From an uncultured Candidatus Saccharibacteria bacterium (GTDB lineage: Bacteria > Patescibacteriota > Minisyncoccia > Minisyncoccales > PEYH01), in contig CAZXXF010000001.1 in assembly GCA_964644805.1 (NCBI GenBank), forward strand, positions 1 to 37,764: a DNA stretch of 37,764 nucleotides, in the 5' to 3' direction. The first letter of the stretch is position 1. Every line of letters starts with the position of its first letter. Below are positions 9,660 through 37,360 of this stretch, piece by piece. The notes under the pieces were generated by a model. The model did no database searches and had not been told where the DNA came from. It saw nothing but the letters and a program-made list of their open reading frames with translations. The position numbers were made by a program, and so were the translations under genes.

Positions 9660-9742
9660 GTTATTTCCTGTTTAATGATTTTATATTTTAACGTTGATCG
9701 ACCTTTTGATATATTTTTATGCGTTCTATGTCTAATAATATA

Positions 9743-9771: not shown

Positions 9772-9798
9772 CACGACTGGCAAGCGGTTAACCTTGAA

Positions 9799-11013
9799 TT
9801 AAAAGGCAATTGTGGAAAGATTCTTGTAGAGGGGAAGGAAAATGGAAAGGACCAATCCCGCGATCAGCCCGCCGACAATGATAATCATTACCGGCTCAAT
9901 AATACTTATAAGACCGTCAATGCTTGAATAAACTTCAACCCTGTAAAAATCGGCTATTTTCGTGAGCGCCTCGTTTAATCTGCCCGTTCTCTCGCCCACT
10001 TTTACCATCTGAACCACTGTCGGAGCCATGCTTTTTGGATGTTTTGCCAAAACATTGCTTAAAGAATCCCCTTTCCGAACGCTGTCTCGGGCGTCTATGA
10101 TGATATTCTGGTATGTTTGATTGGACACGATGCCTCTTACCACGTCAAGACTCTGGGTAATGGGAAGACCGGCAAAAATAAGAGTTGAAAGATTTTCGGC
10201 GATCTGGATAACATAAATTTTTCTCATAATTTTGCCTATCACCGGAAAATTAAGAGCAAGATGGTTCCAATATTTTTTCCCCTCCGGGGTCTTGACATAA
10301 AAAACAAGCCCAAAAACAGCAAAAATTAAAAATACGGCTATCATCCACCAAAATTTTTGCAAAAAACTTCCAAAAGCGATAACGAGCATTGTTATTTTAG
10401 GAAGCTGGACCTCTAACGAGGCGATTGTTTCGGTAAAGCTCGGAAACACGAAAAAAAGCATCAAAATTCCAATAACGGCAAAAACCACCAAAACAAAGGC
10501 CGGATAAATCATTCCCATCCTTATTTTAAGATAAAGATTATATTCTCTTTCCAAATTTTCAGAGAGATATTTCAGGGTGTCCGAAAGCTTTCCGGATGCC
10601 TCTCCCGATTTAATCATATTAATGAAGAAAGAGGAAAATATTTTTGGAAAGCGGGCAAGGGCATCTGAAAAATACATCCCGCCCTCAACTTCATCGGCCA
10701 CTTTTAAAATAACTTCTCTTATTTTTTGTTTTTCCGACTGAAGGGCGATGGTTCTTAATGCGTCAACAAGGCCGATTCCGGATTTTACCATCAAAGAAAG
10801 CTGTCTTGAAAAATTCATTATGTCTTTTTTCCCTATCCGGTTAAAAACATTTAATTCTCGGGCATAAAATGGCCTCCTTTCTTCGGGCTCTAGAAAGGTA
10901 ATATAAAGATCCTGTTCCTGCAAAAGCGAAACCGCCCTTTGACGGCTCGGAGCGTCAATGGCTCCCAATTGGATAAGGCCGTTTTTTGTTCTGGCTTGAT
11001 ATTGAAATTTCAT
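9799..11013 (-). CDS. pilC: Type IV pilus platform protein (GspF/PilC family)
   Basis: 404 aa with two repeated GspF-type halves and three hydrophobic segments. It follows the two ATPase genes. Confidence 0.9.
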   Translation of the reverse strand: MKFQYQARTKNGLIQLGAIDAPSRQRAVSLLQEQDLYITFLEPEERRPFYARELNVFNRIGKKDIMNFSRQLSLMVKSGIGLVDALRTIALQSEKQKIREVILKVADEVEGGMYFSDALARFPKIFSSFFINMIKSGEASGKLSDTLKYLSENLEREYNLYLKIRMGMIYPAFVLVVFAVIGILMLFFVFPSFTETIASLEVQLPKITMLVIAFGSFLQKFWWMIAVFLIFAVFGLVFYVKTPEGKKYWNHLALNFPVIGKIMRKIYVIQIAENLSTLIFAGLPITQSLDVVRGIVSNQTYQNIIIDARDSVRKGDSLSNVLAKHPKSMAPTVVQMVKVGERTGRLNEALTKIADFYRVEVYSSIDGLISIIEPVMIIIVGGLIAGLVLSIFLPLYKNLSTIAF

Positions 11014-12101
11014 CTTTTAAGCAATTCTTTTAATTCTTGGGGATGGGGCGAAAAATTATAGGCATTTTCTGCGGAAATCTTTTTTTCTTTTACAAGGATT
11101 GCGATTGACTGGTTCAAACTCATCATTCCGTCTTGAAGCGAAGTCGTGATTACGAGAGGAATTTCGTGAATTTTATTTTCCCTGATAAGATTCGCTATCG
11201 CGGGGGTGTTGAGCATAATTTCGGCGACAGGAATTAATCCCCCCCCGTTTCTTGGAACAAGTCTTTGAGAAACAATGCCCAAAAGAGAACCGGATAATTG
11301 AGCTCTGACCTGGATTTGCCTTGCCCCTGAAAAGCTATCAACGATTCTGTGAATTGTTTGGGCGGCGGAATTTGTATGCAGGGTAGCAAAAACAAGATGT
11401 CCGGTTTCTGCAGCCGTAACAGCGGTTGATATTGTTTCCGGATCCCTCATCTCTCCAAGCATTATTACATTCGGATCTTGACGAAAAGTAGATCTAAGCG
11501 CCTTTGCGAAAGATCTGGTATCTATGCCAACCTCTCTTTGATCTATCACCGACAAATCATCTTCGAAAAGATATTCTATCGGATCTTCTATCGTAATAAC
11601 ATGATCAGCCCTTGTGTGGTTGATTTCATCGATCAAAGAAGCAAGGGTTGTGGATTTCCCCTGATTGGAAGGGCCCGTAACCAAAACTAATCCCTGGGTC
11701 GCCCTTGTAAAAAGATGAAGAATCGGAGGAAGATTTAATTCTTCCGGAGTGGGAATTTCCATTCTGATAAAGCGCAAAACGCAACTGACTGATTCTTGCT
11801 GAAAATAAGCGTTTCCCCTAAACCTTCCCTTCGCCTGATACGGATATGAAAAATCAACCTCTTTCTCTTGCAATAGTTTTGCGAATTTTTCTTTTGGAAG
11901 GATGGTTTGGACTAAATTGAAAAGATCTTTAGCCGAGAAAATCTCTTTTTCTTCAATTTGCCCAAGTCTGCCGGAAATTCTGATGATCGGCTTCCTGTTT
12001 GAAGAAAGATGGAGATCTGACGCTTTATTGCTTATCGTAATCTCCAATAATTCGTGAAATATTTTTAAATAGTCTTTCATAAAATTTTTCTTAATATTCA
12101 A
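11010..12101 (-). CDS. pilT: Type IV pilus retraction ATPase (PilT family)
   Basis: 363 aa. Walker A GPSNQGKST, Asp box/Walker B VIMLGEMRD, His box TGHLVFATLHTN. ATGA overlap with pilC. Confidence 0.85.
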   Translation of the reverse strand: MNIKKNFMKDYLKIFHELLEITISNKASDLHLSSNRKPIIRISGRLGQIEEKEIFSAKDLFNLVQTILPKEKFAKLLQEKEVDFSYPYQAKGRFRGNAYFQQESVSCVLRFIRMEIPTPEELNLPPILHLFTRATQGLVLVTGPSNQGKSTTLASLIDEINHTRADHVITIEDPIEYLFEDDLSVIDQREVGIDTRSFAKALRSTFRQDPNVIMLGEMRDPETISTAVTAAETGHLVFATLHTNSAAQTIHRIVDSFSGARQIQVRAQLSGSLLGIVSQRLVPRNGGGLIPVAEIMLNTPAIANLIRENKIHEIPLVITTSLQDGMMSLNQSIAILVKEKKISAENAYNFSPHPQELKELLKR

Positions 12102-13830
12102 ACTCCGTTGCTCCGATAATTTCTTCTATCGCTGTGAGTCCCTCCATCGCCTTTAAAATTCCGTCCTGCCTCATCGTAAGCATTCCCTGTTTTTTTGCTT
12201 CCCTTAAAATTTTCTCTTCGTTTGGCTGAGACAAAATAATTTTGCTTAATTCTTTGGTCATTTTTAAAATCTCAAAAAGGCCTATCCTCCCGGAATAACC
12301 GGTGCCTCCGCAGTCAATGCACCCCTCGCCCTTCCAAACATAAAATTCCGAACCTGCAAATTCAGCCCGCCTTCTGCTGCGCGCCGGCAGATCGACCATT
12401 GATTCTGAAATAATCTCTCTAATTTTTAAATCGGGCACAATTCTTTTTTTGCATTTTTGGCAAACCCGCCTGACCAGTCTTTGGGCCAAGACAACATTTA
12501 ATGTCGCGGGAATTAAAAAAGGCTTAACCCCCAGGTCGATTAACCGGGGGATTACTCCGACCGCATTATTGGTATGAAGCGTTGAAATAACAAGGTGCCC
12601 CGTAAGCGCGGCATGGATAGCCAATTCGGCTGTTTCTGAATCTCTTATTTCTCCCACCATGATAATATCGGGGTCTTGTCTTAAAACATGACGCAGACCG
12701 TTCGCAAAATTGTATCCGATCTCCGGCTTTACCTGCGATTGGTTTATCCCCTCTATATAATATTCTATCGGATCTTCAAGCGTGATGATATTGGCCCCCT
12801 CTTTATTCAAAGACTCTAAGACAACATAAAGGGTGGTTGTTTTTCCGCATCCAGTCGGACCAGTGGCAAGCAACATTCCATAAGGCGACGCTATCGCTCC
12901 CTTAAGAACTTCAAGCGCGCCGGCTCTTAATCCAAGACTATCAAAGTTTTGGAGTCTTTTCTGCGGATTAAGAACCCTCATTACCACTTTTTCTCCAAAA
13001 AAGGTTGGGAAAGTTGAAACTCTGAAATCAATATTTTGCTCGTTAATGGCAATTGAAAAACGGCCGTCTTGGGGAATTCTCGTTTCGTCAATCCTTAAAT
13101 TAGCGATTATTTTAATGCGGGAAACTATTGAGGGATGAATTTTCTGCGGCAGAAAAAGACTTGAATGAAGAACCCCATCCAATCTGAAGCGCACTCTGGT
13201 CCGGTCTTTAATTGGTTCAACATGAATATCCGAAGCTCCGCCCTCGATTGAATGTCTCAATATAACCGCCACCATTTTGCTTATGGGCGCTTCTGCTATT
13301 CTTTGGCCGATATCTTCGGGGCGGACAAGCGATATTTCTTTTTCTACTTTTTTTATCTGAAGCTGTTTCTCCAAGTCTTCAAGGGCGGTCTTCACCTCTT
13401 TTTTCAAACTCTGATATTTTCTGAATATTTCGTTGAAGTTGCTCGGAGTAATAAGAAAAACGCGATATTCAAAATCTTGCTGGCGGGCCAAAAATTTAAG
13501 CGCCTCAAGCGCTCTTAAATCATCGGGGTAAACCATCCCTATTTCAAGAAGATTATCTTTTTTTTTAACGGGTATCATCCTGTAATATTGAGCGGAATCC
13601 TTTGGAATAAGCTCCAGCGTTTCGGAGGAAATTTCATTGACGGATATTGTTTTTAAATCCACCCCCAAAATCTCGCCCTTAATCTCATATAAAACACTTT
13701 CAGGGACTAATCTCTTTTCCAGAATAATTTCTTCCTCTCTCTGTCCCGATTCTTTTATTTCTTGTAAAAGAGAGGTGACCTTTGATCGGTCTATTATTTC
13801 CCTTTTTGTTAATTCTTCAATTAAATTCAT
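12091..13830 (-). CDS. pilB: Type IV pilus extension ATPase (GspE/PilB family)
   Basis: 579 aa. N-terminal GSPII-like domain, Walker A GPTGCGKTT, IIMVGEIRD, TGHLVISTLHTN and tetracysteine CQKC...CIDCGGTG. Confidence 0.9.
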   Translation of the reverse strand: MNLIEELTKREIIDRSKVTSLLQEIKESGQREEEIILEKRLVPESVLYEIKGEILGVDLKTISVNEISSETLELIPKDSAQYYRMIPVKKKDNLLEIGMVYPDDLRALEALKFLARQQDFEYRVFLITPSNFNEIFRKYQSLKKEVKTALEDLEKQLQIKKVEKEISLVRPEDIGQRIAEAPISKMVAVILRHSIEGGASDIHVEPIKDRTRVRFRLDGVLHSSLFLPQKIHPSIVSRIKIIANLRIDETRIPQDGRFSIAINEQNIDFRVSTFPTFFGEKVVMRVLNPQKRLQNFDSLGLRAGALEVLKGAIASPYGMLLATGPTGCGKTTTLYVVLESLNKEGANIITLEDPIEYYIEGINQSQVKPEIGYNFANGLRHVLRQDPDIIMVGEIRDSETAELAIHAALTGHLVISTLHTNNAVGVIPRLIDLGVKPFLIPATLNVVLAQRLVRRVCQKCKKRIVPDLKIREIISESMVDLPARSRRRAEFAGSEFYVWKGEGCIDCGGTGYSGRIGLFEILKMTKELSKIILSQPNEEKILREAKKQGMLTMRQDGILKAMEGLTAIEEIIGATEFEY

Positions 13831-14120
13831 TTTTTAGACGGGGTAGGTTGTGTCTGCGGAAGGGAAAAAGGATTTTCTCGCCCAAGACTTTCTTCCCATG
13901 CGGGAAACGACTCGTACGATTCGAGGATTTTCAAAACAGGATTATTCAGGTTGGAAAAATTTATTTGGGGCGGCTCTATTTCTTCCAGACTGATTTCAAT
14001 AAGCATTGATTTTTTCCGAAAAATGTTTAAAACAATCAATATAAAAACTATTATAAGCGCTATGAGAATAATCAAAGAATAAAGATCTTTTCTTTGCGGT
14101 TTGGTAAAAACAATTGCCAT
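13827..14120 (-). CDS. Single-pass membrane protein, PilP-like (tentative)
   Basis: 97 aa with one TM helix. The C-terminal GRENPF resembles the R(D/N)PF motif of PilP-type proteins. ATGA overlap with the pilB start. Confidence 0.4.
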   Translation of the reverse strand: MAIVFTKPQRKDLYSLIILIALIIVFILIVLNIFRKKSMLIEISLEEIEPPQINFSNLNNPVLKILESYESFPAWEESLGRENPFSLPQTQPTPSKK

Positions 14121-14124
14121 ATTT

Positions 14125-14658
14125 TTAATAAGAATAAACCCTTAGCTTCACTTCAAAACTAAAAAGATTTAATCCCTTTTGGGGGGCAGTGAAGGAAATT
14201 TCTTCCACCTCGAAAAGTCGGGCGCTTTTCTCCACCTTTGATAAAAAATTATTAAAAGAAGCGTATGTCCCGACAAGATTGACAAAGATTTTTATCTCTT
14301 TGATTTTTTTTATTTCTTCTATCTCTTTAAATTCCTTTGGCTCGCTTATGCTTATTCTGCTTATGATCAATCCGTTTTCAGCGGTTGTTTTTTCAAAGTA
14401 AGCGATTAGCTTGTCGTAATCGGGATCACTCGGAATAGCCGCAACGACTTTTGCGGCCAATTCTTTATCTTTTCCCAAAGTAAGAAACGTTTCCCTTATT
14501 TTCTGAAAATACTGGCTGTGGTTTTTTAAAAATTCCTCTTTATGGGCTAAATTATGCTGCGCCTTAATATATCCCTGATATTTCGGCCAAACAAACACCA
14601 ATCCGACAAACAGGGCGGAAAAAAGACAAATTAAAATGACGATTTTTGGATGTTTCAT
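14125..14658 (-). CDS. PilO-like pilus alignment protein
   Basis: 177 aa with an N-terminal TM helix, a coiled region and a C-terminal alpha/beta part. Called from its position after pilM and the pilN-like gene. Confidence 0.5.
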   Translation of the reverse strand: MKHPKIVILICLFSALFVGLVFVWPKYQGYIKAQHNLAHKEEFLKNHSQYFQKIRETFLTLGKDKELAAKVVAAIPSDPDYDKLIAYFEKTTAENGLIISRISISEPKEFKEIEEIKKIKEIKIFVNLVGTYASFNNFLSKVEKSARLFEVEEISFTAPQKGLNLFSFEVKLRVYSY

Positions 14659-15194
14659 TTTATTATAAGGGCGCTTGAGCTGAAAAAAACTTCAATTTTA
14701 AATCCTATTTTGCCGTCCTCTACCCGATCGGCATCGGAAAGAAATACTTTTTCAATTTTCGGCTTTTCTTTTTCTAACGCTCTTATTTGCTGCGCCAAGC
14801 TAATCATATCGCTGGACGTGCCGGTCAAAATCGCCTTATTGTCTCTCAATACTAACGATATTGAGTTAAAAACAACTTTTGGATGGACATTGTTTTCTAT
14901 TATAGAAAATGCGCTTGTGGAGATTACGTGTCTTTCGATGAGTCTGGGCAGGGCGTCAAGCTTTTCTTTATAATCGTAAGCTTGTTTTTTCATATTTTGC
15001 TGTTCTGGCGTACTGATCTTTTTTAACTCTTCTTCGACGGCTTCTAAAGATGCGCCTACCTTTCGGGTATTTATGTTAAGCGCGAAAAAAGCGCCTATTG
15101 TGCCTATAAGCACCAATATGGAAAACCAAAACAAAAACGAAGCTGCAAACGATTCTCTTTCTACTACTTCTTCCTGAGGAATGACTTTTACCAT
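14655..15194 (-). CDS. PilN-like pilus alignment protein
   Basis: 179 aa bitopic protein immediately downstream of pilM, with a 4-nt overlap with the next gene. Confidence 0.5.
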   Translation of the reverse strand: MVKVIPQEEVVERESFAASFLFWFSILVLIGTIGAFFALNINTRKVGASLEAVEEELKKISTPEQQNMKKQAYDYKEKLDALPRLIERHVISTSAFSIIENNVHPKVVFNSISLVLRDNKAILTGTSSDMISLAQQIRALEKEKPKIEKVFLSDADRVEDGKIGFKIEVFFSSSALIIK

Positions 15195-15197
15195 AAA

Positions 15198-16274
15198 TTA
15201 TTTATTTACTCCTCTTAAAGCGGCACCTACTGCTATTGTAAATTCAGGTCCTATTCTTTTCAAGATCAGCTCCAATCCCGGAGGGTAAGAAACATCAACG
15301 AAAGGATCTCCTATTTCTATCGGCACGCGAAATGCTTCGGCAAAATAATCTCTTAGGCCCGGAAGGGAAGAATTGCCTCCAGCAAGAATAATTTTTTCAG
15401 CTTTTTCTTTTTCTTCAAGAAAATAATTGTTCAAAATATTTTTTGTTTCTTTAACGACAGACTCAATCAGGGGAAAAATAATATTTTTTATCGTTTCTTC
15501 CTTTTTAATGCCGTATATTTTTTTAATAATTTTGGCTTTACGAACATCTATATTTAATTTCTCCGATAATGTACGGACAATTTCCTGGCCGGCGATATCA
15601 ATGCTGTGAGAAACTCTTAGAACGCTTTGGGAAACAATGTTAATGGTTGCGCTTCTTTCTCCAAGATCTATAAGGCATACTGTCGCACGGCGGTCTTGAT
15701 ATTTTATAAGCGCCCTTGCAAGAGAAAATGCTTCGCTCTCAAGGGCGGCGATTTCCAATCCGATAGCTTTTGCTATCGCCTGATATTGATTGATTGTTTC
15801 GTTGGGAACGGCGACCAATAACACTTTAAGGGGTGAGCGGCCATCAAATTGAGGAGCCCCTTTCACTATTTCCCAGTCAAGAGTCACGTCGGCAAGCGGC
15901 ATGGGAATGTGGCGCGGAGCTTCATATTTGACGGCCTCTTCTAATTCTTGCTTGCTCATCGAAGGCAGCTGGAAAGTGGTAAAAAAAGTGGCGTAATCGG
16001 GAATGGCAAAAAAAGCTCTTTTTTTCTTTATCTTCGCTTCTTGCAATACCGCGCCCAGGGCGCTGATTATCATTTCTTTTGAGAGAAAAATCTCTTTGCT
16101 GTATGAAACGACATCGCTTGCCCGACCGAGAAAATATTCTGTCCTCAATTGTCCGTAATTTTCCAACCTTCTTCCGCCCGCTCCGCTTATTTCAACCACT
16201 TTAAGCGAGGCGCTTCCGATGTCTACTCCCAAAAAACTTTTTGAACCGAGCATTCTAAGTGGATTAAAGCCCAT
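15198..16274 (-). CDS. pilM: Type IV pilus assembly ATPase-fold protein PilM
   Basis: 358 aa with an actin-like fold. N-terminal phosphate-1 motif LGVDIGSASLKVVEI. First gene of the pilus operon. Confidence 0.85.
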   Translation of the reverse strand: MGFNPLRMLGSKSFLGVDIGSASLKVVEISGAGGRRLENYGQLRTEYFLGRASDVVSYSKEIFLSKEMIISALGAVLQEAKIKKKRAFFAIPDYATFFTTFQLPSMSKQELEEAVKYEAPRHIPMPLADVTLDWEIVKGAPQFDGRSPLKVLLVAVPNETINQYQAIAKAIGLEIAALESEAFSLARALIKYQDRRATVCLIDLGERSATINIVSQSVLRVSHSIDIAGQEIVRTLSEKLNIDVRKAKIIKKIYGIKKEETIKNIIFPLIESVVKETKNILNNYFLEEKEKAEKIILAGGNSSLPGLRDYFAEAFRVPIEIGDPFVDVSYPPGLELILKRIGPEFTIAVGAALRGVNK

Positions 16275-17399: not shown

Positions 17400-17477
17400 G
17401 CATTAAACCTTAAACCATCCCGGGCCGCGACTTTTTATGAAAACTGGCCAATCGTGTTAGAATTCGGATTCAAATTT

Positions 17478-19073
17478 ATGGGCTCGGCAGAAGAAAAATA
17501 TTATCTTTCCGTTTCTTATGCAAAAGATCTCCTAAAAAAGAGAGAGAGATTTGTCTACCGCTTATTTGAAATGCTACCGGGTTTTTTAAGCTGGATTACG
17601 ATAATAAGCGCGATTATTTTGTGCGGAATAAGGCCCTTTTGGATGGCTATTTTTATTGTTTCCTTCGTTTTCTATTGGTTCGCAAAGGCGATTTATTTTT
17701 CCGCCCATCTTAAGCTTGGCTACAGAAAAATGAAAGAAAACCAGAAAATTGATTGGTTAAAAGAGTTGGAATCCCTGCCAAAAAATAAATATTCCATTCC
17801 CATAAACGATTGGCGGGAAATTTATCATTTAATAGTTCTGCCAATGTACAAAGAGCCGATTGAAATAGTGCGCGAGTCTCTTAACTCAATCGTCAAATCG
17901 GCATATCCTAAAGAAAAAATGATTATTTTTCTTGCCCTTGAAGAAAGGGCGGGGAAACACTCTCTTGAAATAGAAAAAATGGCTAAAAATGAATTTGGCG
18001 ACAAATTTTTTCATTTTGAGACTGTGCTTCATCCGGCGAATCTGCCCGGAGAAATCGCGGCAAAGTCAGCCAATGAAACCTGGGCCGCCAGACGGGCAAA
18101 AAAGTTCGCAGATCAAAGAAAAATAGATTATCAAAATATCATTTTTTCTTCTTTTGACATAGATACTGTTATTTATCCCCACTATTTCTCCAGACTGTCT
18201 TTTTGCTATCTCACCTCTAAAAATCCGACTCGGGCAAGCTTCCAGCCCATTCCCCTTTTTCTGAATAATATTTGGCAGGTGCCTTTTATTTCAAGGATTT
18301 TCTCTTTTTCCACAACCTTCTGGCACCTGACCAATCAGGAGCGGGAAGAAAGGCTTATAACATTTTCTTCCCATTCAATGTCTTTTCTTCCCCTCATAGA
18401 AGTGAATTTCAAAAAAAGCGACGTCATTTCAGACGATTCAAGAATTTTTTGGCAATGTCTCCTGAAATATGACGGAGATTACCGTACGGTTCCTCTTTAT
18501 TATCCCATTTCTATGGACGCCAATATGAACCGGAGTTTTTTTAAAACAATGTTAAGCATATATAAACAACAAAAAAGATGGGCTTACGGGGCGGGCGATA
18601 TCGCTTATTTTTTGTTTGGCTTTATAAAAAATAAAAAAATCCCGCTGAGAAAAAAAATCAGTCTTGGCTGGGAATTAATAGAGGGGCATTGGAGTTGGGC
18701 TTGCGCCCCTGTTTTGCTTTTCCTGCTTGGATGGCTGCCAACCACAATAGGCGGCTATGCTTTTTCTCAAAGTCTTATTGGGTATAACCTTCCAAGAATC
18801 ATAAGCAAAATTTTAACAATCGCCATGGTCGGATTAATCACCTCCGCTTATTATGCTTTCTATATCCTCCCTCCGAAAACAAAAAAAAGGCGGTTTAATG
18901 TTGTTTTCATTTTTTTGGAGTGGCTTCTTTTGCCAATGACAATGATTTTCTTTACGGCCCTGCCGGCTTTAAGCGCGCAGACGCATTGGATCTTAGGAAG
19001 ATATATTTCTTTTTGGGTGACGCCGAAATCTCGCGGATCTATAAAAACTACTCTAAAAGAGCAATCTCTTTAA
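17478..19073 (+). CDS. Membrane-embedded family-2 glycosyltransferase (processive synthase-like)
   Basis: N- and C-terminal TM helices flank a GT-A domain with LPMYKEP, FDIDT, ISDDSRIF and QQKRWAYG (a Q-x-x-R-W motif). ATG at 17478 is preferred; the ORF track starts at GTG 17454. Confidence 0.8.
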   Translation: MGSAEEKYYLSVSYAKDLLKKRERFVYRLFEMLPGFLSWITIISAIILCGIRPFWMAIFIVSFVFYWFAKAIYFSAHLKLGYRKMKENQKIDWLKELESLPKNKYSIPINDWREIYHLIVLPMYKEPIEIVRESLNSIVKSAYPKEKMIIFLALEERAGKHSLEIEKMAKNEFGDKFFHFETVLHPANLPGEIAAKSANETWAARRAKKFADQRKIDYQNIIFSSFDIDTVIYPHYFSRLSFCYLTSKNPTRASFQPIPLFLNNIWQVPFISRIFSFSTTFWHLTNQEREERLITFSSHSMSFLPLIEVNFKKSDVISDDSRIFWQCLLKYDGDYRTVPLYYPISMDANMNRSFFKTMLSIYKQQKRWAYGAGDIAYFLFGFIKNKKIPLRKKISLGWELIEGHWSWACAPVLLFLLGWLPTTIGGYAFSQSLIGYNLPRIISKILTIAMVGLITSAYYAFYILPPKTKKRRFNVVFIFLEWLLLPMTMIFFTALPALSAQTHWILGRYISFWVTPKSRGSIKTTLKEQSL

Positions 19074-23851: not shown

Positions 23852-23895
23852 TCATTGGCTGATCGCTAAAATCAGCATAATATAAAAACCAGAAT

Positions 23896-23923
23896 AAAAA
23901 CAACCCCAAGAAGGGTTGTTTTT
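23896..23923 (-). terminator. Intrinsic (bidirectional-looking) terminator after the last pilin-module gene
   Basis: AAAAA-CAACCC-caagaa-GGGTTG-TTTTT: a 6-bp GC-containing stem flanked by A5 and T5, 20 nt downstream of the stop at 23943. Confidence 0.6.
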
Positions 23924-23942
23924 ATTCGCTCCATGAAAAAAT

Positions 23943-24299
23943 TTATTGCAAGTCTTTCGGTAGTTCTACTGGTTTTGCAATAATCATTGACACTAGGGCT
24001 ATTATTCCCCTTGCAACCATCGCTACTGCAAAACCAACAAGGGCGTAAATTAACATCTGCCTTGCTTTGGCAACTTGATCAGGATTTCCTCCGCCGGTGA
24101 CAAAGAGGTATCCGGCCACGACAACCATAATCACAACAACAACCATTAAAAAGGTGAATATCCAATTCGTTATTCTTGATATGACCTGAAGTACTTCTTG
24201 GGCAGTCATCTTAGGAATTTTCTCCGGCTCCGTGGCGAACGCTACGCTCCATATTGTCAATCCGAGGAGCATTACTAATCCCAATAATTTTGAATTCAT
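23943..24299 (-). CDS. Small secreted VirB2/TrbC-like pilin-module protein (paralogue 5)
   Basis: Signal peptide MNSKLLGLVMLLGLTIWSVAFA, then two hydrophobic helices joined by GGGNPDQVAKARQ. ATG 24299 is preferred over TTG 24347 because the predicted promoter would start transcription near 24349. Confidence 0.7.
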   Translation of the reverse strand: MNSKLLGLVMLLGLTIWSVAFATEPEKIPKMTAQEVLQVISRITNWIFTFLMVVVVIMVVVAGYLFVTGGGNPDQVAKARQMLIYALVGFAVAMVARGIIALVSMIIAKPVELPKDLQ

Positions 24300-24355
24300 T
24301 GTTTTATTAAAATTTTGGGGAGATTGCTTTTTCCGACCTTTTATCAATTAATATC

Positions 24356-24385
24356 ATTATATCAGGTTTTAAAAACCAAAGTCAA
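24356..24385 (-). promoter_or_regulatory. Near-consensus promoter of paralogue 5
   Basis: Minus strand: TTGACT (24385-24380), 18-nt spacer, TATAAT (24361-24356). Confidence 0.55.
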
Positions 24386-24392
24386 GAAAATG

Positions 24393-25169
24393 TTATTTTT
24401 TATCAACGCCGATCACGAGCTGAACAAGATCTATAATTCCCCTTGACATTGCCATAAGCGCAAAACCTATTAATGCGTAAAAAAGAGCATTTTTCCCCTG
24501 TTGAATTTTTGATGGATCGCCGGCCGCGATTAAGATATTGATTCCGGCAACCAGCATCACCAGAATCAAAATGCCGGTTGCAATCCAATAAACCGATCCG
24601 CTTGCTTTATCGATGAATTCCTCAATTCTTGTCGCCCTTATCGGATTTATCTTATTCTTGTCAATTGGATCTGGCGTTTCTGGCTTTTTTATAACTTTCA
24701 CATTGCCAATAACAGTTTCGGAAATAGTGTTTTGCGCCCCTCCGCCCTCAAAACTGGTACCAGTAACGGTTATTTTATAATTTCCTTCATTGAAAAACTC
24801 CCACCCGAAATTATAATCGCAAGAAACCGAGTTAGATCCTATACATCGATTGTCAACCACAGAGCCCCTAATTTCAAGGCAGCAGGTAGAATGAGCGGGA
24901 GAATACGCTCCGCCAGTTCCTCCATAGTCTATTTTTATCGCTGTGCATTTCTTTGCCGAAGAACAGCTCCCTCCGCCCGATAAAGGAAGCAAGAATCCAT
25001 CCCCTCTTATGGTCACAAACACAGAAATGTCTTCGCCCTTAAAAACAACTTGAGGTTCTATTTTAGCGCTATCTACCTTCCAGACTACAACCGCTGCAGC
25101 ATTTACCAAAAGGGGCATAAAAATATTTAAGAAAACCAACAATAAAAGAATATAATAATATTTTTTCAT
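24393..25169 (-). CDS. Secreted protein with beta-rich (PKD-like) ectodomain plus C-terminal pilin module (paralogue 4)
   Basis: Signal peptide ...PLLVNA, an ectodomain of about 150 aa (IDYGGTGG, WEFFNEGNYKITVTG), then WIATGILILVMLVAGINILIAAGDPSKIQQGKNALFYALIGFALMAMSRGIIDLV. Confidence 0.7.
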   Translation of the reverse strand: MKKYYYILLLLVFLNIFMPLLVNAAAVVVWKVDSAKIEPQVVFKGEDISVFVTIRGDGFLLPLSGGGSCSSAKKCTAIKIDYGGTGGAYSPAHSTCCLEIRGSVVDNRCIGSNSVSCDYNFGWEFFNEGNYKITVTGTSFEGGGAQNTISETVIGNVKVIKKPETPDPIDKNKINPIRATRIEEFIDKASGSVYWIATGILILVMLVAGINILIAAGDPSKIQQGKNALFYALIGFALMAMSRGIIDLVQLVIGVDKK

Positions 25170-25180
25170 AATTTTTGAAA

Positions 25181-25501
25181 TTAACCTTTTAATATCAGTT
25201 TTATCAGGGCGATAATTCCGTTTGCAGACATTATTATCGCGAATCCTGCGATTGTGTATAAAATAATCCTTTTTCCGGTCGCGATTTTTGAAGGATTTCC
25301 GGCCGCGGTTATTATTAGAAAAGCCCCTATCAGAATCATTGCCGGCGCTACGGCAAGGGCGATAGTAAAAAGCCAGCTTCCGACTTTTTGAATCATCTCT
25401 TCCCAGTCATTGGTTGTTGTTGGATTTATTATTTTTACTCCTCCGGCATAACAGAAAAAAGGCGACAACAGCGATGACAATAAAACAGCGATGTTTTTCA
25501 T
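25181..25501 (-). CDS. Small secreted VirB2/TrbC-like pilin-module protein (paralogue 3)
   Basis: 106 aa. Signal peptide, then WLFTIALAVAPAMILIGAFLIITAAGNPSKIATGKRIILYTIAGFAIIMSANGIIALIKLIL. Confidence 0.7.
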   Translation of the reverse strand: MKNIAVLLSSLLSPFFCYAGGVKIINPTTTNDWEEMIQKVGSWLFTIALAVAPAMILIGAFLIITAAGNPSKIATGKRIILYTIAGFAIIMSANGIIALIKLILKG

Positions 25502-25507
25502 AATATT

Positions 25508-26221
25508 TTAATGGAAGGTGATGTCTTTGGCGCTGAAACTTGTCACAAGTTTTATTATCAGCATTATGGCAAAAAAACCGATTGCCAATAGAATAATTTT
25601 TTTTCCTTTTTCTATATTTTGAAGCGATCCGCTGTTAAGCATTAAAAATCCGCCGGATATGATTCCCAAAACCAAAAGAATGATGGATAAATAAAGCAAA
25701 AATCCGGCAATATTGTCAAAAAGATCCCCGAATTTTTGATAGAAGAGAGGGTTGAGCTTGCTTTTATTGATAGAGCTCCCCCCACCCCCGCCCCCGCCGC
25801 CATTTCCTTTTTCGTCTTCTTTTTCTTTTACTTGTATAGAGCATTGGGCAACGTCATAACACGCGCCTTGACGCTTAAGTCCAACACAGCGGTATATTTT
25901 GGCATTATGTTGACCGGGAGAAGAATAGTTATGCTTAAACGTTCCACTGCCCACATCATTAGCCATAAGAATCCATTCAGAACCATCTCCCGGATCGAAA
26001 TAAAAATAAACAGTGGGAATTTTTACACTACCCGTCCTAGATATATTATAAGAAAAAGTGACATCCTTGCCTTGAACTGCCTGTCCGGTAGCGCCTGCAA
26101 AACCACTATAATTAGTATTTAGATACTCTATATCAAAGGCGCATTGGGCGTTAATAATCGTGGGCAAAAACAAAATCAAGAAAAGAAGTATTATTAAATT
26201 TATTGTTTTTGTAATTTTCAT
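25508..26221 (-). CDS. Secreted PKD-like ectodomain, Gly-rich linker and C-terminal pilin module (paralogue 2)
   Basis: Signal peptide ...TIINA, FDPGDGSEW and FKHNYSSPGQHNAKIY (PKD-like), a GNGGGGGGGGS linker, then a degenerate two-helix module. Confidence 0.65.
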   Translation of the reverse strand: MKITKTINLIILLFLILFLPTIINAQCAFDIEYLNTNYSGFAGATGQAVQGKDVTFSYNISRTGSVKIPTVYFYFDPGDGSEWILMANDVGSGTFKHNYSSPGQHNAKIYRCVGLKRQGACYDVAQCSIQVKEKEDEKGNGGGGGGGGSSINKSKLNPLFYQKFGDLFDNIAGFLLYLSIILLVLGIISGGFLMLNSGSLQNIEKGKKIILLAIGFFAIMLIIKLVTSFSAKDITFH

Positions 26222-27120
26222 TATTGCTGCACCCCTAAAATTAATTTCAAAAGCTCAAAAATTCCTCGAGACATCAATGCCATTGAAAATCCTATCAGCG
26301 CCCAGATAATTATTCTTTTCGCTTTTTCTCTTTTCAAAGGATTTCCTCCGCCCGCAACCATAACAAAAGCTCCGATTAAAATCATCAAAACAGAAAGTCC
26401 GAGACAAATATTGAATATAAAGTTTGTGAAATAGAGAATAAATTGAATTATTGAATCCCAAATTAAGGGATCATCGTATCCCGTCGAAAGAGGTGGGGGG
26501 GGCGGAGGAGAAGGAGAAATACACCCAGAAGTGTCAAACCTGCACTGATTTTTATGATCCGGTGGATAGCAAGAAAGCGATCCACTCTCGTATTTTTTCC
26601 CGCTCGAATCATTAAAATCCTGACAGCTTTTGCCGGCTAATTCCGATCCGTCGCAATCTTCTCCGGCGTCAATGGCGCCATTTCCGCAAGATACCACTGG
26701 TGAATCCCTAGAATGAACCATAATCTTGGACGTTTGTATTCCATAAGGATTTCCACAGCCAAGCGCATCGCCAATGCCAAACCTTACAATATATTCTCCC
26801 GGGCTACCATAGCTTGCGCTATAAGTCTGTGTAGGACAATCATATCTGTTTGTGGTGTTGTTATAATCGCAATTGACCTTACTATGCCTTGTCCAGGAAT
26901 TATTGCCCCAATCAAAACAAAAAAATTGGCTGGGCCCCGCGCCAAATCCGGCCGCTGTAACGAAAATGATTACGCTATCCCCAACAAAAGGATCTGGCGG
27001 ATTAAAATCAAACAAAACGCTTATAGCCTCAATTTTTAATGCGAAAGACAGTGCTAAAAAGATAAAAATGCTGAAAATCAAAAACCGTTTTTTAAATTTA
27101 AAGCTATATTCTTTTATCAT
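26221..27120 (-). CDS. Secreted PKD-like and Cys-rich ectodomain, poly-Pro linker and C-terminal pilin module (paralogue 1)
   Basis: Signal peptide ...ALKIEA, FDWGNNSW...YGSPGEYIVRFGI, Cys-rich CGNGAIDAGEDCDG...C...C...C, PSPPPPPPP, then LMILIGAFVMVAGGGNPLKREKAKRIIIWALIGFSMALMSRGIFELL. Confidence 0.7.
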   Translation of the reverse strand: MIKEYSFKFKKRFLIFSIFIFLALSFALKIEAISVLFDFNPPDPFVGDSVIIFVTAAGFGAGPSQFFCFDWGNNSWTRHSKVNCDYNNTTNRYDCPTQTYSASYGSPGEYIVRFGIGDALGCGNPYGIQTSKIMVHSRDSPVVSCGNGAIDAGEDCDGSELAGKSCQDFNDSSGKKYESGSLSCYPPDHKNQCRFDTSGCISPSPPPPPPLSTGYDDPLIWDSIIQFILYFTNFIFNICLGLSVLMILIGAFVMVAGGGNPLKREKAKRIIIWALIGFSMALMSRGIFELLKLILGVQQ

Positions 27121-27124
27121 AATT

Positions 27125-27646
27125 TTATTTTTCCAAAATTACTCCCCAGTGATATGTTCCTGCGTCTATTTCTTCGGATAGTTTAAGCTCCAGTTTCCTC
27201 ATAATTGGTTTAATGTCTTCTGTCTCCATTCTTTTTCCATCCGGGCCGAATGGCGAATTCTTTTTCCACTCAACAATAATAATTTTTCCGCTGGGCTTTA
27301 ATATCCTTTTTGCCTCGCCTAAAACGGCTTTGTCGTTTTCGGTTTGGAACAAGAGATTAATGATGAAAACAAAATCAATGGATTCATCGGGAAGGGTTGA
27401 ACCGCCCGGCTCTTCAAGATTGCATCTTATGCACTTAATATTATTCAGTCCGAAAAGCTTCGCGTTGCCCTCCAGAGCCGAAAGAGGATCCGACTGGATA
27501 TCAAAGGCGTAAACAATTCCTCCCAGTATTTTTTTTGCCAGAGGAATGGTAAATCCGCCAGATCCGCACCCGAAATCAGCCGCAATTGAATTCGGAGGAA
27601 AATAAATCTGTTCTGTTATCTTCTCCGGATCAAAAAAAGAAATCAT
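27125..27646 (-). CDS. Class I SAM-dependent methyltransferase
   Basis: 173 aa. Motif I DFGCGSGG, acidic post-I residue (YAFD) and a motif IV-like FVFIINLL. It ends 4 nt upstream of paralogue 1. Confidence 0.8.
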   Translation of the reverse strand: MISFFDPEKITEQIYFPPNSIAADFGCGSGGFTIPLAKKILGGIVYAFDIQSDPLSALEGNAKLFGLNNIKCIRCNLEEPGGSTLPDESIDFVFIINLLFQTENDKAVLGEAKRILKPSGKIIIVEWKKNSPFGPDGKRMETEDIKPIMRKLELKLSEEIDAGTYHWGVILEK

Positions 27647-27762: not shown

Positions 27763-30255
27763 TCAAGAATTCAGATATATTACCGATGAAACTTTGTCGT
27801 CTTTATCAAGGCGCATTAACCTCACTCCCTGAGTGGTTCTTCCAAGAATCGATATGTTTTTAGCCGGGATTCTGATTACCTGTCCTTTTTTAGATATGAT
27901 AATCAAATCTTCATTCCCGCTTAAAATTTTAGTTTTGACCAGATCGCCGGTCTTAGGATTTATTTTTGCCGTTCTGAGCCCCCGCCCGCCCCTTTTTTGA
28001 AGCCGGTATTGGCTTATTTTTGTCATCTTGCCAAAGCCGTTTTCAGAAACAACTAAAATGTTTTGTCCTTTTGTTGTCTGATCCACAACGCCCACGCCGA
28101 CGACTTCATCTTCCTTATGAAGTTTGATGGCTCTTATTCCCGCGGAATTGCGCTCCATTGCCCTTATCTCTTTTTCTTTGAAGCGGATGGCAATCCCTTT
28201 TTTGGTAATAATGATTATTTGGGCTTCCCCTGTTGTTTTTTGAACCTCTCGCAAAGAATCTCCTTTCTTAAGTTTTATGGCTATCAGCCCGCTGCTTCTC
28301 AAGTTTTCGAATTTATCAAGCGCGGTTCTTTTGATAATTCCGTTTTTGGTAACCATTGCGAGATATTTAACGCCGCCCTCCTTGTCCGCCTTGCCCATTG
28401 AAATAATAGAGAAAACTTTTTCATCGCTTGAAATTTCCAAAAAATTAACAAGCCCCCTGCCCTTGGACGATCTGGTTCCCTTGGGAATCTCATAAGCCGT
28501 AAGACCGAAAACCTTTCCCGAGTCGGTAAAAAATAATAATTGGTCATGAGTGTTTGCTAAAAGAAAGTGCTCGACAAAGTCCTCTTCGTTGGTTTCAACG
28601 CCTATAACCCCCTTTCCCCCCCTATGCTGTATCTTGTAGGCCGCCGGTTCGATGCTTTTTATATATCCATTTTGAGTAAGGGTAATTATCGTTTCTTCTT
28701 CTGGAATAATATCTTCTTCTGTTATTTTCTCCGGTTCCCGGGCAAAAACTTTTGTCCTTCTGGGGTCTTGGTATTTTTCTTTGATTTCCCTAATTTCCTG
28801 CCTGACAACATTCTTTATCAGCTTATCGCTTTTAATAATCGCGGAAAGCTCTTTTATTTTGGCCCTTATTTGGGCCAATTCATTTTCTATTTTCTCCCTT
28901 TCAAGCCGCGCGAGAGCCGCAAGTTTTGTTTCTAAAATCGCTTCCGACTGGATATCGCTAAGCTTGAATTGATTCATTAAGTTTTTCTTCGCCTCTTCTC
29001 TGGTTTTTGATTTTTTGATCAGCGCGATTACCTTGTCAATGTTGGACAGGCACTTAACAAGACCCTCCAAGACGTGTTCTCTTTCTTGCGCGCGCGACAG
29101 ATCGTATTTGCTTCTTCTTAAAATAACTTCTTTGCGGTGGGCAAGGTAGTGAGTTAAAACTTCTGCCAGAGAGAGAACTTTCGGCTCGATCCCGTCAACG
29201 AGGGCAAGCATGTTTAAATAAAACTTTTTCTGAAGATCGGTATAGCGGTATAGAAGGTTAAGGACTTTTTGCGGAAAAGCTCCTTTTTTTAATTCTATAA
29301 CGACTCTTAACCCCTCCCGGTCGGATTCATCTCTGACGTCTTTTATCCTGTCTAATTTTCTGTCTTGAACCAATTTCGCGATTTGAGAAACAAGCATTGA
29401 TTTCTGGACTTGGTAGGGAATTTCCGTGATGACAATTTGCCAATTTCCCTGCTTTTCCAAAATCTCGGCCTTGCCCCTGTTTAAAATAACTCCCTTCCCC
29501 TGCGTATAAGCCGAAACGATTTCTTTTAAATTGAATATCGCTCCGCCGGTCGGAAAGTCTGGGCCTTTTATAAACTGAAAAAGCTCTTCGGTCTCCGCGT
29601 CTGGATGATCTATCAAATAAATGACCGCATCGCAAATTTCTCCAAGATTATGGGGGGGGATATTGGTCGCCATCCCAACGGCAATGCCCAAAGATCCGTT
29701 TAACAAAAGTTGGGGCAGGGGCGCCGGCAAAACAACCGGCTCTTTCCGGCTGTTATCGTAATTGTTAACAAAATTAACCGTATCTTTTGAAATATCGCTT
29801 AAAAGCTCTTCTCCGATTTTTGACAATTTGCATTCTGTATAACGCTGAGCTGCGGGAGGATCATTGTCTATGCTGCCAAAATTACCCTGTCCTCGTATCA
29901 GAGGATATCTCATTGAAAAATCCTGGGCCATTCTGACCAAGGCGTCATATACGGCCAGATCTCCATGGGGATGATAGCGGCCAAGACATGCGCCAACGAC
30001 CGTGGCCGATTTTCTAAACTTTGCGCCGGGAGCAAGGCCGTCTTCGTGCATGGCAAAAAGTATTCTTCTGTGAACCGGCTTTAACCCGTCCCGAACGTCC
30101 GGGAGCGCGCGAGAAACTATAACGGACATCGCGTAATCAATATAGCTTTCTTTCATTTCCTGTATAATTTCCCTCGGCAGGATCTTACCGATTGGATTTT
30201 GAGGAGTATTTTTTTCCAGACTATTCAGGTTTTTATCAGGATTTTCTTTATTCAT
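27763..30255 (-). CDS. gyrA: DNA gyrase subunit A
   Basis: [26 protein letters not shown], active-site region [10 protein letters not shown], and a C-terminal beta-pinwheel repeat region. 830 aa. Confidence 0.95.
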
Positions 30256-34307: not shown

Positions 34308-34379
34308 GGGCACGTAGCTCAAGGGTGGAGCAAGGTCCTTATAAGGCCGAGGTTGTTGGTTCAAATCCAACCGTGCCCA
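34308..34379 (+). tRNA. tRNA-Ile (anticodon UAU)
   Basis: GGGCACG-TA-GCTC-AAGGGTG-GAGC-A-AGGTC-CTTATAA-GGCCG-AGGTT-GTTGG-TTCAAAT-CCAAC-CGTGCCC-A. U33 and A37 are in place and anticodon positions 34-36 read TAT. There is one A:G mismatch at 27:43. Confidence 0.75.
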
Positions 34380-35817: not shown

Positions 35818-35905
35818 GCGCGGGTGCTGTAATTGGTAGCCAGGCAAGGTTGAGGACCTTGTGTCCTTAAAAGACGTAGAGGTTCAAGTCCTCTCCCGCG
35901 CACCA
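35818..35905 (+). tRNA. tRNA-Leu (anticodon GAG), CCA encoded
   Basis: Acceptor GCGCGGG/CCCGCGC, anticodon arm CAAGG-TTGAGGA-CCTTG, long variable arm, T arm AGAGG-TTCAAGT-CCTCT, 3' ACCA. Confidence 0.9.
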
Positions 35906-37360
35906 TTTCGGAAATAGCAAGGCAGAGGAAGCCGCCTCGCTTCGCTCGGCGGCCAGTTTGTATTGAATTTTCGGGGCAAAACCGAATTGGCGATTTTCTA
36001 AAACATGGTTCGAGCCGATTGTTTTCAGAAATGTTGTCATTTCCTCTTTGTTTTCTGATTGAACTAAATTCGCAGCTTGATTTAAGGATAAAACAAACTC
36101 ACGAGCCGGTTCGAGCCAAGACAACCCTTTTTGTTCAAAATCTCTAATTTTCTCGCCAAGCTCGACCTTTTGGGTAAGTAACTTATCTTTTCTCGCTTTG
36201 TAATCATCGGCAGAAATGACTTCGCTAAGATAAGCGTCAAGTAGTTTTTCGAGCTTGGTTTCGATTTCAGTTAATTCCATTTTGAGATTTTGAACAGCAG
36301 TTTTAGCTTCCTCTTTTGCTCGCTCCTCGTCTTTTTGTAGTTCCGCCAAAACTTTTTCTGTGTCTTGGCTCGACAAAGAAACTTTTTGAAGATAACTTCT
36401 GATCTGTTCGGTTAGAAGTTCCTCTCGCAAATAATGCTTTTCTTGGCACGGTCCTTTCTTTTTGGTGCAATGGTAGTAATGATGTCCCTTTTGTATTTCG
36501 GCAGTAATGGCGCAACCACATGAAGCGCATTTGAGTAAGCCAAGAAAAGCAAAATGATGTTTACGAATATCTTTTGACTTTCCGCGTTTTTTCATCACTT
36601 CTTGGCAAGTATCAAAAAGTTTCTTCGAGATTAACGGCTCTTGAGTTCCTTCAAAAACCTCTCCCTTAAATTTCATGAGACCAATATAGAAAATATTTTG
36701 TAGAATTTTTTGCAAACTACTGATTGAGATTTTGTTGTTCTTGTTACCACGAAGATTGTGTTTGACGCACCAATTTGCGAGAGAATGAAGCGGATAATTT
36801 CCAGCGGCATAAAGCTCAAAAACTTTTTTCACCAGTGGAGATTTTGCGGGGTCAATATCTACTCCTCGCGTTCTTGCATTGTTAAGATAGCCAACCGGAG
36901 CCCAGCCAGGCCATACGCCATTTCGTATTTTTTGGCGCAATCCACGCTTCACATTCTCTCGCAAATTATCTACAAAATATTTTGATTGACCAAAGGCGAT
37001 ATTCAACATGAACAAGCCTTGTGGTGTCGCTTCGAACCAAAATGTTGGAAATTTAAGGGAGCGAATCAAGCCGCGATCAACGAAATGGATAATTTTGCCT
37101 CCGTCTACACTATTGCGAGCTAATCTATCCGGGTGCCATGCAATTATCCCGTCCGCCTTGCCTTTTTCGAGTAATGACAACATTTCTGCGAATTTCATTC
37201 GCCCGGGCTCTTTGGCGGTTTTGGCCTCGCAAAGCGAGGCAACAATTTCCAATTTTTCTTTGGCGGCATACTCTTGCAGCTCTACGAGCTGCGCTTCAAT
37301 ACTCAAAACCTGGCGGTCATCTTCTTCGGTAGATTTTCTTGCGTATAATATGTATCTCAT
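35867..37360 (-). CDS. Large serine recombinase (resolvase/invertase N-domain, recombinase domain, zinc ribbon, coiled coil)
   Basis: MRYILYARKSTEEDDRQ with the catalytic Ser in YARKST, HPDRLARN, recombinase domain GW.PVGY, zinc ribbon CASCGC...HYYHC....C and a long coiled coil. The last 13 codons are antisense to tRNA-Leu. Confidence 0.9.
   Translation of the reverse strand: MRYILYARKSTEEDDRQVLSIEAQLVELQEYAAKEKLEIVASLCEAKTAKEPGRMKFAEMLSLLEKGKADGIIAWHPDRLARNSVDGGKIIHFVDRGLIRSLKFPTFWFEATPQGLFMLNIAFGQSKYFVDNLRENVKRGLRQKIRNGVWPGWAPVGYLNNARTRGVDIDPAKSPLVKKVFELYAAGNYPLHSLANWCVKHNLRGNKNNKISISSLQKILQNIFYIGLMKFKGEVFEGTQEPLISKKLFDTCQEVMKKRGKSKDIRKHHFAFLGLLKCASCGCAITAEIQKGHHYYHCTKKKGPCQEKHYLREELLTEQIRSYLQKVSLSSQDTEKVLAELQKDEERAKEEAKTAVQNLKMELTEIETKLEKLLDAYLSEVISADDYKARKDKLLTQKVELGEKIRDFEQKGLSWLEPAREFVLSLNQAANLVQSENKEEMTTFLKTIGSNHVLENRQFGFAPKIQYKLAAERSEAASSALLFPKWCAGEDLNLYVF
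35900..35997. repeat. Inverted repeat A (98 bp), left copy
   Basis: Exact reverse complement of 37396-37493, compared base by base (98/98). It begins with GCACCA, the last 6 nt of tRNA-Leu. 51 of 98 positions are G/C. Confidence 0.95.
35999..36025. repeat. Inverted repeat B (27 bp), left copy
   Basis: TAAAACATGGTTCGAGCCGATTGTTTT is the exact reverse complement of 37604-37630. It is itself an imperfect dyad (AAAACA...TGTTTT around TCGA). Confidence 0.95.

Follow-up and report, generated by a model that had tools for sequence, protein, structure and literature searches.

In a 37,764-nucleotide (nt) window of DNA (the whole of contig CAZXXF010000001.1 of assembly GCA_964644805.1), we identify five consecutive genes at 23943-27120 that are best explained as one chromosomal operon, linked to gyrA, that encodes five VirB2/TrbC-like paralogues of the PF18895 pilin family. 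We refer to them as pilins A to E; C and E are bare pilins, and A, B and D carry an additional N-terminal head. Our best reading is that the array specifies a surface-display system built on pilin hairpins. In the form we favour, to which we assign a probability of roughly 45%, the proteins would assemble as a VirB2-type heteropolymer, either a fibre or a stub, whose bulk would consist of E and C and whose minor, head-bearing pilins A, B and D would recognize a host or surface. From its sequence, the source organism is best explained as a Patescibacterium of the class Paceibacteria: the closest match to its GyrA (82% identity) is found in a metagenome-assembled genome (MAG) of Candidatus (Ca.) Wildermuthbacteria, GCA_037445205.1, which contains the same array. 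Patescibacteria account for much of bacterial diversity and spend their lives in attachment to other microbes; little is understood of how they recognize and hold their hosts.

Five tandem genes share a pilin-like module

An earlier reading of the window, made from its letters alone (the sequence-only reading), had proposed five tandem genes with signal peptides and a common C-terminal two-helix module, two of them minimal and three with inserts of about 130-200 amino acids (aa). The open reading frames (ORFs) lie exactly where it placed them, all on the minus strand, and our analysis bears out each of these points. Pilin A (26221-27120, 299 aa) comprises a signal peptide (residues 1-33), a PKD-like β-sandwich head (34-136, nt 26713-27021), a single Cys-rich CGNGxxDxGEDCDG repeat (about 145-201, nt 26518-26688), a poly-Pro linker and the module (216-299, nt 26224-26475). 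Pilin B (25508-26221, 237 aa) has a signal peptide (1-25), a PKD-like head (26-154, nt 25760-26146), a poly-Gly linker and the module (155-237, nt 25511-25759), and pilin D (24393-25169, 258 aa) a signal peptide (1-24), a Cys-containing head (25-172, nt 24654-25097), a Pro-rich linker and the module (173-258, nt 24396-24653). The bare pilins C (25181-25501, 106 aa; module at nt 25184-25435) and E (23943-24299, 118 aa; module at nt 23946-24221) consist of signal peptide and module. The inserts in A, B and D measure 182, 129 and 148 aa, their linkers to the module read SPSPPPPPP, GGGGGGGG and KKPETPDPID, respectively, and the gaps A-B, B-C, C-D and D-E are -1, 6, 11 and 93 nt. All five predicted signal peptides have a Lys-rich n-region, a hydrophobic core and a small-x-small motif (IEA, INA, CYA, VNA and AFA).

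The shared module spans about 84 aa, with two hydrophobic helices, a basic G-G-(N/D)-P...K loop between them and a GF...RG(I) motif in the second helix; pairwise identity among the five modules is 19-39%. Against the Pfam family PF18895 (T4SS_pilin, for type IV secretion system), which has a gathering threshold of 26.6 bits, pilins A, C, D and E score 37.1, 42.6, 39.8 and 38.1 bits (E-values 6.6e-11 to 3.4e-9). Pilin B falls below the cut-off at 21.6 bits (E = 2.4e-4), and its orthologue in L002 lies above it at 29.1 bits; here and below, L-numbered loci are those of relatives compared with the window, L002 being a Logan contig. A family hidden Markov model (HMM) of 56 relatives matched only these five ORFs in the window, with E-values from 7e-18 for pilin B to 3.5e-38 for pilin E, the best of the five. 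Queried as an alignment profile, the five modules retrieved 28,765 cluster representatives at E <= 1e-3 among 1.84 billion proteins; a single-sequence query with pilin C gave only 5 proteins. Named homologues are annotated 'pilin' by NCBI and come from Patescibacteria, Paceibacterota and Nealsonbacteria. By these profile matches the module is a member of PF18895, the VirB2/TrbC-like pilin family of Patescibacteria, and neither HMM nor structure searches placed it in an unrelated family.

The relation of the module to classical VirB2 and TrbC is real but thin. Among relatives, the TrbC family PF04956 was matched by 3 of 36 proteins (best E = 4.2e-5), by 5 of 88 and by pilin A of L006 at 0.03, in line with the VirB2/TrbC-like character that the sequence-only reading had proposed. 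When 56 pilins of the candidate phyla radiation were compared by hhalign with five authentic plasmid VirB2/TrbC proteins, the pairwise E-value was 4.9e-4 over 41 columns, at a probability of 32%, and the mature N-terminus and helix 1 were aligned in register. In NCBIfam there were sub-threshold matches only, to the pilin-like family NF045849 of Mycoplasma integrative and conjugative elements (ICEs): four of the five modules aligned weakly with its full length, and their scores of 14-23 bits (E = 3.5e-5 to 0.03) are far under the 40-bit cut-off. The AlphaFold2 (AF2) model of pilin C (predicted local distance difference test, pLDDT, 84) has helices at 33-64 and 70-105, and that of pilin A has a module hairpin with helices at 221-256 and 261-295 (pLDDT about 90-96). 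Two module-alignment profiles searched against PDB sequences gave chance matches only. The N_methyl domain (PF07963), which marks a class III leader, was matched by none of the five array proteins and by four type IV pilins elsewhere in the window.

Heads predicted to face outward, two of them PKD-like

The heads of A and B are supported as PKD-like, A by its predicted fold and B by a sub-threshold sequence match. In the AF2 model, the head of pilin A (residues 34-136) is a β-sandwich with pLDDT 85-96, and Foldseek matched it best to the PKD domain 4xed (E = 5.4e-5, TM-score 0.69), followed by CARDB 3idu and the ColG PKD domain 2y72. Pilin A has no Pfam match to PKD PF00801 (gathering threshold 23.5 bits), and pilin B scores 17.0 bits (E = 0.006), below that threshold. 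Similar sub-threshold PKD matches recur in the orthologues L002 A and B, L003 B and L006 A and in P0243 (17-21 bits, E = 3e-4 to 6e-3), with E = 6.7e-4 for L002 B. For the head of pilin D, Pfam gives a faint TIG hint only, and its fold is probably Ig-like; with phmmer, neither the B head nor the D head matched any PDB sequence.

In phmmer searches (E-values down to 3e-23), the Cys-rich segment of pilin A (about 145-201) aligns to the CGNGxIDxGExCDG motif that Myxococcota proteins carry as tandem repeats, and one of the proteins matched carries PF13948. The segment itself, a candidate Myxococcus-type repeat (DUF4215/PF13948-like), had no Pfam or NCBIfam match at E <= 1, and in the AF2 model it has low confidence (pLDDT 50-79) and the Pro linker is disordered. 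The PKD-like or Ig-like nature of the heads, which the sequence-only reading had foreseen as β-rich, PKD-like inserts, is supported, as is a topology that keeps the variable domains out of the cytoplasm. The heads of A, B and D contain 10, 4 and 6 Cys residues, and such even numbers are expected for extracytoplasmic disulfides. Across 56 family members, the inter-helix loop has a net charge of +1.4 and the segment before helix 1 a net charge of -0.6. Together, cleavable signal peptides, even Cys counts and a basic loop with an acidic N-terminal flank predict a topology in which the N-terminus and the heads fused to it face outward.

A conserved array with fast-evolving heads

The neighbourhood of the array is kept in GCA_037445205.1 and L002, where genes for FtsH, S1, lactamase_B, GyrA, a methyltransferase, the five pilins, HSP20, PrsW and TsaD recur, with the pilins in the same order as in the window and of similar sizes. 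The five-gene order is also kept in L087, and the start of the array in L003-5 and L007. Compared with L002, a single pair in which synonymous divergence (dS) is saturated, housekeeping proteins show 92-95% aa identity, a nonsynonymous divergence (dN) of 0.02-0.03 and a dS of about 0.4-1.0. In the same comparison the pilin modules show 79-92% identity, a dN of 0.04-0.11 and a dN/dS of 0.04-0.19, and pilin E is 83% identical to its orthologue. The array is thus under purifying selection.

The heads behave differently from the modules. In pilin A, dN is 0.76 for the β-head, compared with 0.087 for the Cys-rich repeat and 0.063 for the module; in pilin B, identity is 33% in the head, with a dN of 0.80, and 92% in the module. 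Pilin D has changed less, its head being 78% (dN 0.14) and its module 86% identical. Between these close relatives the PKD heads of A and B have diverged about 30 times faster than housekeeping proteins while the modules are conserved, so that 'swapped', or hypervariable, heads on a conserved anchor, as the sequence-only reading had it, is an accurate description. One orthologous locus, L003, contains a diversity-generating retroelement at 1859-4319, 4 kb upstream of its array, with bAvd, a reverse transcriptase, a template repeat at 2817-2948 and an 89% identical variable repeat at 2344-2475. Its target is a 206-aa gene and not the pilins; with the variable region in another gene and no reverse transcriptase in the window, we ruled out such an element as the driver of head variation.

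Two conserved signals set pilin E apart. Within the 93-nt gap before the gene lies a σ70-type promoter-like site at 24356-24385 on the minus strand (TTGACT-18 nt-TATAAT preceded by TG), which agrees with the consensus at 11 of 12 positions, has an extended -10 and is kept in sequence and spacing in L002 and L006, despite a dS of about 0.8-1 between the window and L002. The gene likely starts at the ATG at 24299 rather than at an upstream TTG at 24347, because the conserved promoter fills 24385-24356 and the orthologue begins MNSKLLGL. An intrinsic-terminator-like hairpin at 23892-23927 on the minus strand (16-bp stem and T run) closes the array just before a tRNA-Leu gene; it is kept in L002 with changes in the stem sequence, and L006 shows a comparable GC-rich hairpin downstream of its gene E. 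With a promoter and a terminator of its own, both conserved, E is probably transcribed separately at a high level, which would mark it as a candidate bulk subunit.

Upstream, gyrA (27763-30255) is followed by a gene for a class I S-adenosylmethionine-dependent methyltransferase (27125-27646, minus strand, 173 aa; Methyltransf_11, _31 and _25 matches in Pfam, E about 1e-15), which ends 4 nt upstream of pilin A. The methyltransferase is 95% identical to its L002 orthologue and down to 46% identical across lineages. It follows gyrA and precedes arrays in L002-L008, L010, L028, L039 and L093/L094, and a metagenome scan with it returned six distant loci, among them L093 and L094, which represent the same array, a methyltransferase gene followed by six pilin genes. 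It is missing from L009 and L019 although arrays are present there, which rules it out as an obligatory partner. Distant genomes also contain arrays just downstream of gyrA that consist of bare pilins only. In four of these, all from Patescibacteria, a gene for an extracellular SBP_bac_1/8 solute-binding protein of about 430 aa stands directly before the gyrA-linked array (L019 3747-5117, L028 8166-9443, L033 3624-4928 and L039 13016-14311), in the position of the head-bearing pilins; this may hint at a link of the array to nutrient uptake.

Head-bearing and fused pilins across the family

Head-bearing pilins are common family-wide. We examined the architectures of 160 proteins, comprising the best 150 of the 28,765 representatives, the window proteins and close homologues; this ranking favours multi-module proteins, so its proportions are not representative. 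Among them, 29 have a single module with an N-terminal extension of at least 100 aa, 29 are bare pilins and 95 contain 2-8 fused hairpins. In a less biased sample, 9 of 88 family matches are longer than 200 aa. N-terminally extended members carry PKD, PKD_4, TIG, fn3, He_PIG, NPCBM_assoc and Kre9-Ig domains, the extensions are often very Cys-rich, and Gly-, Pro- or Ser-rich linkers end just before a conserved NP(L/I) motif.

The fused proteins, which we call polypilins (seen among proteins P0041-P0185), have 2-8 complete hairpins arranged head-to-tail behind one signal peptide; P0041, for example, is a 606-aa protein with seven modules. We found no description of polypilins in the literature on PF18895 pilins consulted for comparison.

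A pilus, a membrane display or something else?

In the mechanism we envisage, Sec would export all five proteins, their signal peptides would be cleaved and the C-terminal modules would insert as helical hairpins with both termini outside and the short basic loop toward the cytoplasm. Pilin E, with its strong conserved promoter and its terminator, would supply the bulk subunits together with C, and A, B and D would be modular pilins, each with an Ig-like head on a flexible Gly- or Pro-rich linker at the N-terminus of the hairpin. The hairpins of the different pilins would polymerize together, with lipid, as a heteropolymeric fibre or a short stub on which the heads are displayed, and the fast-evolving A and B heads would be adhesins that recognize a host or a surface, as suits an epibiotic life. 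The inter-helix loop faces the lumen in the conjugative pili whose structures are solved, which would leave the termini on the outside and the heads displayed on the fibre. Assembly would fall to a VirB4/VirB6-type T4SS with genes elsewhere in the genome, provided that the genome has one. Of this picture, the sequence analysis shows the family membership and architecture of the proteins, their predicted topology, the fold of a head, the pattern of conservation and the operon signals; polymerization, the role as adhesins and the machine are inferences.

Several observations weigh against a fibre of this kind. No T4SS component, including VirB4, VirB6 and VirD4, was found in the window or in the orthologous loci L002-L007 and L087, and domain searches of every ORF of at least 110 aa in the window found no VirB4, VirD4, VirB6 or relaxase domain. 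In a published survey, VirB4 is present in 2,417 of 3,035 Patescibacteria assemblies (80%) and, among the Table S1 rows compared, positive in 2 and negative in 15 of 17 Ca. Wildermuthbacteria assemblies (PMC12102498). Given this rarity, the source genome may lack the usual pilus-assembly ATPase. To our knowledge, an ATPase extracts pilins from the membrane in all systems studied, and if the source organism shares the lack of VirB4, a conserved and selected pilin array exists without it. The link to classical pilins is also strained: none of the five window proteins matched PF04956 at E <= 1, the hhalign probability is just 32%, and a Foldseek search of the pilin C model against the PDB gave nothing at E <= 1e-3, its top 50 including no conjugative pilin, although that model still carried the signal-peptide helix and so discriminates poorly. 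Steric crowding would make it difficult to build a homopolymer in which every subunit bears a bulky head, and 2-8 hairpins fused in one chain, as in many members, are odd for a classical pilus subunit. Finally, a 2025 review calls a patescibacterial T4SS pilus an 'intriguing possibility', none having been observed yet (PMC12857230).

The main rival reading takes the hairpin to be only a two-helix membrane anchor, perhaps in hetero-oligomeric patches or rings with C and E, with neither a T4SS nor a filament. As adhesins so anchored, or as binders of the wall or an S-layer, the PKD/Ig heads would be displayed on the cell surface or within the wall zone. We regard this as a genuine possibility, if a doubtful one. 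It would agree with the absence of VirB4 from the window and all orthologous loci, and with an array that is conserved, at a module dN/dS of 0.04-0.19, in a lineage in which 15 of 17 assemblies compared lack VirB4. Long arrays far from any virB4, such as the nine genes of L086, fit as well, and the frequent 2-8-module fusions suggest side-by-side packing of hairpins in the membrane. A single PKD domain on a linker of 10-15 residues, however, would barely clear the cell wall or an S-layer, which sits poorly with head evolution resembling that of domains exposed to hosts or phages. A pure anchor also leaves the conservation of bare C and E, and the strongest promoter on E, unexplained. Moreover, the lineage assignment depends on one MAG label at 82% GyrA identity, and the VirB4 negatives cover the window, the orthologous loci and related assemblies. 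A more novel reading is that, in a VirB4-poor lineage, the conjugative-pilin hairpin has been freed from the T4SS, so that C and E form a self-organizing or Sec/YidC-dependent lattice, ring or stub decorated with the hypervariable heads of A, B and D; we consider this rather unlikely.

Other explanations fare worse. Classical pilins such as TraA and TrbC have unusually long leaders and undergo extra processing, and in our alignment the junction in the fused pilins coincides with the mature N-terminus of the bare pilins; the heads might accordingly be pro-domains, leader or chaperone regions removed near the NP(L/I) junction to leave bare pilins only in the final structure. This is improbable, as no signal-peptidase-type small-x-small motif precedes the junction, the heads are folded, diverse, disulfide-rich Ig-like domains on flexible linkers, and their fast evolution suits exposed recognition domains better than chaperones. 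Still less credible is a reading in which the Pfam name misleads and the module has nothing to do with pilins, being some generic hairpin of the membrane (of a holin-like, immunity-protein-like or unknown-function type). Helical hairpins are low in information, the pilin annotation of PF18895 is a prediction, and neither Foldseek nor PDB sequence searches returned a conjugative pilin. Yet the family adjoins virB4 in 1135 of 1948 assemblies of other Patescibacteria (PMC12102498), and in Southlakia its members in the T4SS cluster are essential (PMC10633639). Its members co-match PF04956 and NF045849, and the hhalign comparison aligns them in register with true VirB2.

The window also contains a complete type IV pilus cluster at 6141-16274 on the minus strand, encoding PilM, a PilN-like ORF, PilO, PilB, PilT, PilC, PilD and four N_methyl pilins. 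The sequence-only reading had stated that no secretion ATPase is nearby, which stands for T4SS components and fails for PilB and PilT, two secretion-type ATPases 10-12 kb from the array that belong to an unrelated type IV pilus machine. PilD and the type IV pilus machine require a class III leader. We therefore find it hard to believe that this machine, 8-20 kb away, assembles the array proteins: complete as it is, it has four N_methyl pilins of its own, whereas the five proteins have ordinary signal peptides, C-terminal hairpins and no class III leader.

Other features of the window

Elsewhere in the window, a tRNA-Leu(GAG) gene (35818-35905, plus strand) shares its 3' end with a gene for a large serine recombinase (35867-37360, minus strand), an arrangement that resembles the border of an element inserted at a tRNA gene. 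At 34308-34379 lies a predicted tRNA-Ile with anticodon TAT (UAU); this anticodon is uncommon in bacteria, in which AUA is normally read by a lysidine-modified CAU tRNA. A 539-aa multi-pass membrane protein (17454-19073) has no Pfam match, is kept next to recG in L087 and, from its sequence, looks like a membrane glycosyltransferase. The minimum of the cumulative GC skew and a switch in gene orientation coincide at the 31197/31316 intergenic region (about 31.2 kb). A replication origin there, near the array, is not supported, as the site has no cluster of DnaA boxes despite the skew minimum and strand switch.

Implications and comparison with known systems

If head-bearing VirB2-like pilins act as we propose, they would give a T4SS or pilin system an explicit recognition surface, with the PKD heads of A and B as the parts under host-driven diversification, and recombinant heads could serve as reagents for binding and localization work. 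Should the array instead work without VirB4, it would reveal a second, secretion-independent life of conjugative-pilin hairpins, and many metagenomic PF18895 genes would need re-reading. In the case of a hairpin freed from the T4SS, pilins would have given rise to a novel type of organelle for adhesion or display, with polypilins as fused versions of the lattice.

The sequence-only reading overstated how new the array is: tandem pilin arrays are already known in Patescibacteria, and the family has been described (PMC12102498, PMC10633639, PMC12857230). Southlakia epibionticum ML1 has a six-gene VirB2-like array in its T4SS cluster, essential and described as 'predicted pilin subunits' (PMC10633639), and PMC12102498 counts 441 tandem arrays of 2-11 genes in 383 Patescibacteria assemblies, with a mean identity of 25%. 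Paceibacterales cultures express their T4SS-pilin genes at some of the highest levels seen for genes of unknown function (PMC10936435), PF18895 is the top Pfam domain of freshwater-specific structure clusters (10.1101/2025.04.23.650224), and the function of the Patescibacteria T4SS, which together with its pilin array proved essential in the only species tested, has been called 'completely unknown' (PMC11665869). Pilins with appended domains are unmentioned in PMC10633639, PMC12857230, PMC10936435 and PMC12102498, and our literature searches found no description of them. What our analysis adds to this literature is that head-bearing pilins are common, that the A and B heads evolve fast, that the array occupies a conserved gyrA-methyltransferase site without VirB4 nearby and that the closest named lineage is VirB4-poor in the assemblies compared.

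The array described here resembles the published Patescibacteria arrays in family (PF18895), phylum, chromosomal location and tandem arrangement of divergent paralogues (25% mean identity there, 19-39% here). It differs in standing beside gyrA and a methyltransferase gene rather than in a virB4 cluster, in the Ig/PKD heads of 129-182 aa on three of its five members and in a closest named lineage that mostly lacks VirB4. With the classical pilins VirB2, TrbC, TraM and TraA (PF04956, PF05513) it shares a signal peptide followed by a mature two-helix unit of about 65-85 aa with a basic loop, bare precursors of comparable size (106-118 aa here and 121 aa for VirB2) and weak profile-level similarity; in mature VirB2, TraM and TraA, which are 64-74 aa long, a basic loop that faces the lumen joins the two hydrophobic helices (10.1101/2022.04.28.489814). 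Here, by contrast, there is no direct PF04956 match, no VirB3-B11 genes are adjacent and the host is a monoderm. We know of no classical pilin that carries a folded N-terminal domain.

Other systems echo single aspects of the array. The VirB2 arrays of Bartonella and Anaplasma phagocytophilum, as cited in PMC12102498, show a similar tandem amplification and diversification, read as host-facing surface variation, but their variation lies inside a small pilin, within a complete diderm VirB system and without appended domains. The 'Mbov_0395 family pilin-like conjugal transfer protein' of Mycoplasma (NF045849) is likewise a small two-helix pilin-like protein of elements in wall-less monoderms, and differs in being encoded on an ICE with conjugation genes. 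In design, a parallel to our proposal comes from PilB and PilC of Streptococcus sanguinis (PMC8179133, PMC9934059), in which an adhesin module is grafted onto a pilin polymerization module and a minor modular subunit stands beside bare major pilins in a monoderm, an arrangement like the one that we propose here. Those proteins have the unrelated fold and machine, and the class III leader, of type IV filaments and carry their adhesin module at the C-terminal end; in pilins A, B and D the putative recognition domain sits at the N-terminus, ahead of a conserved VirB2-type hairpin.

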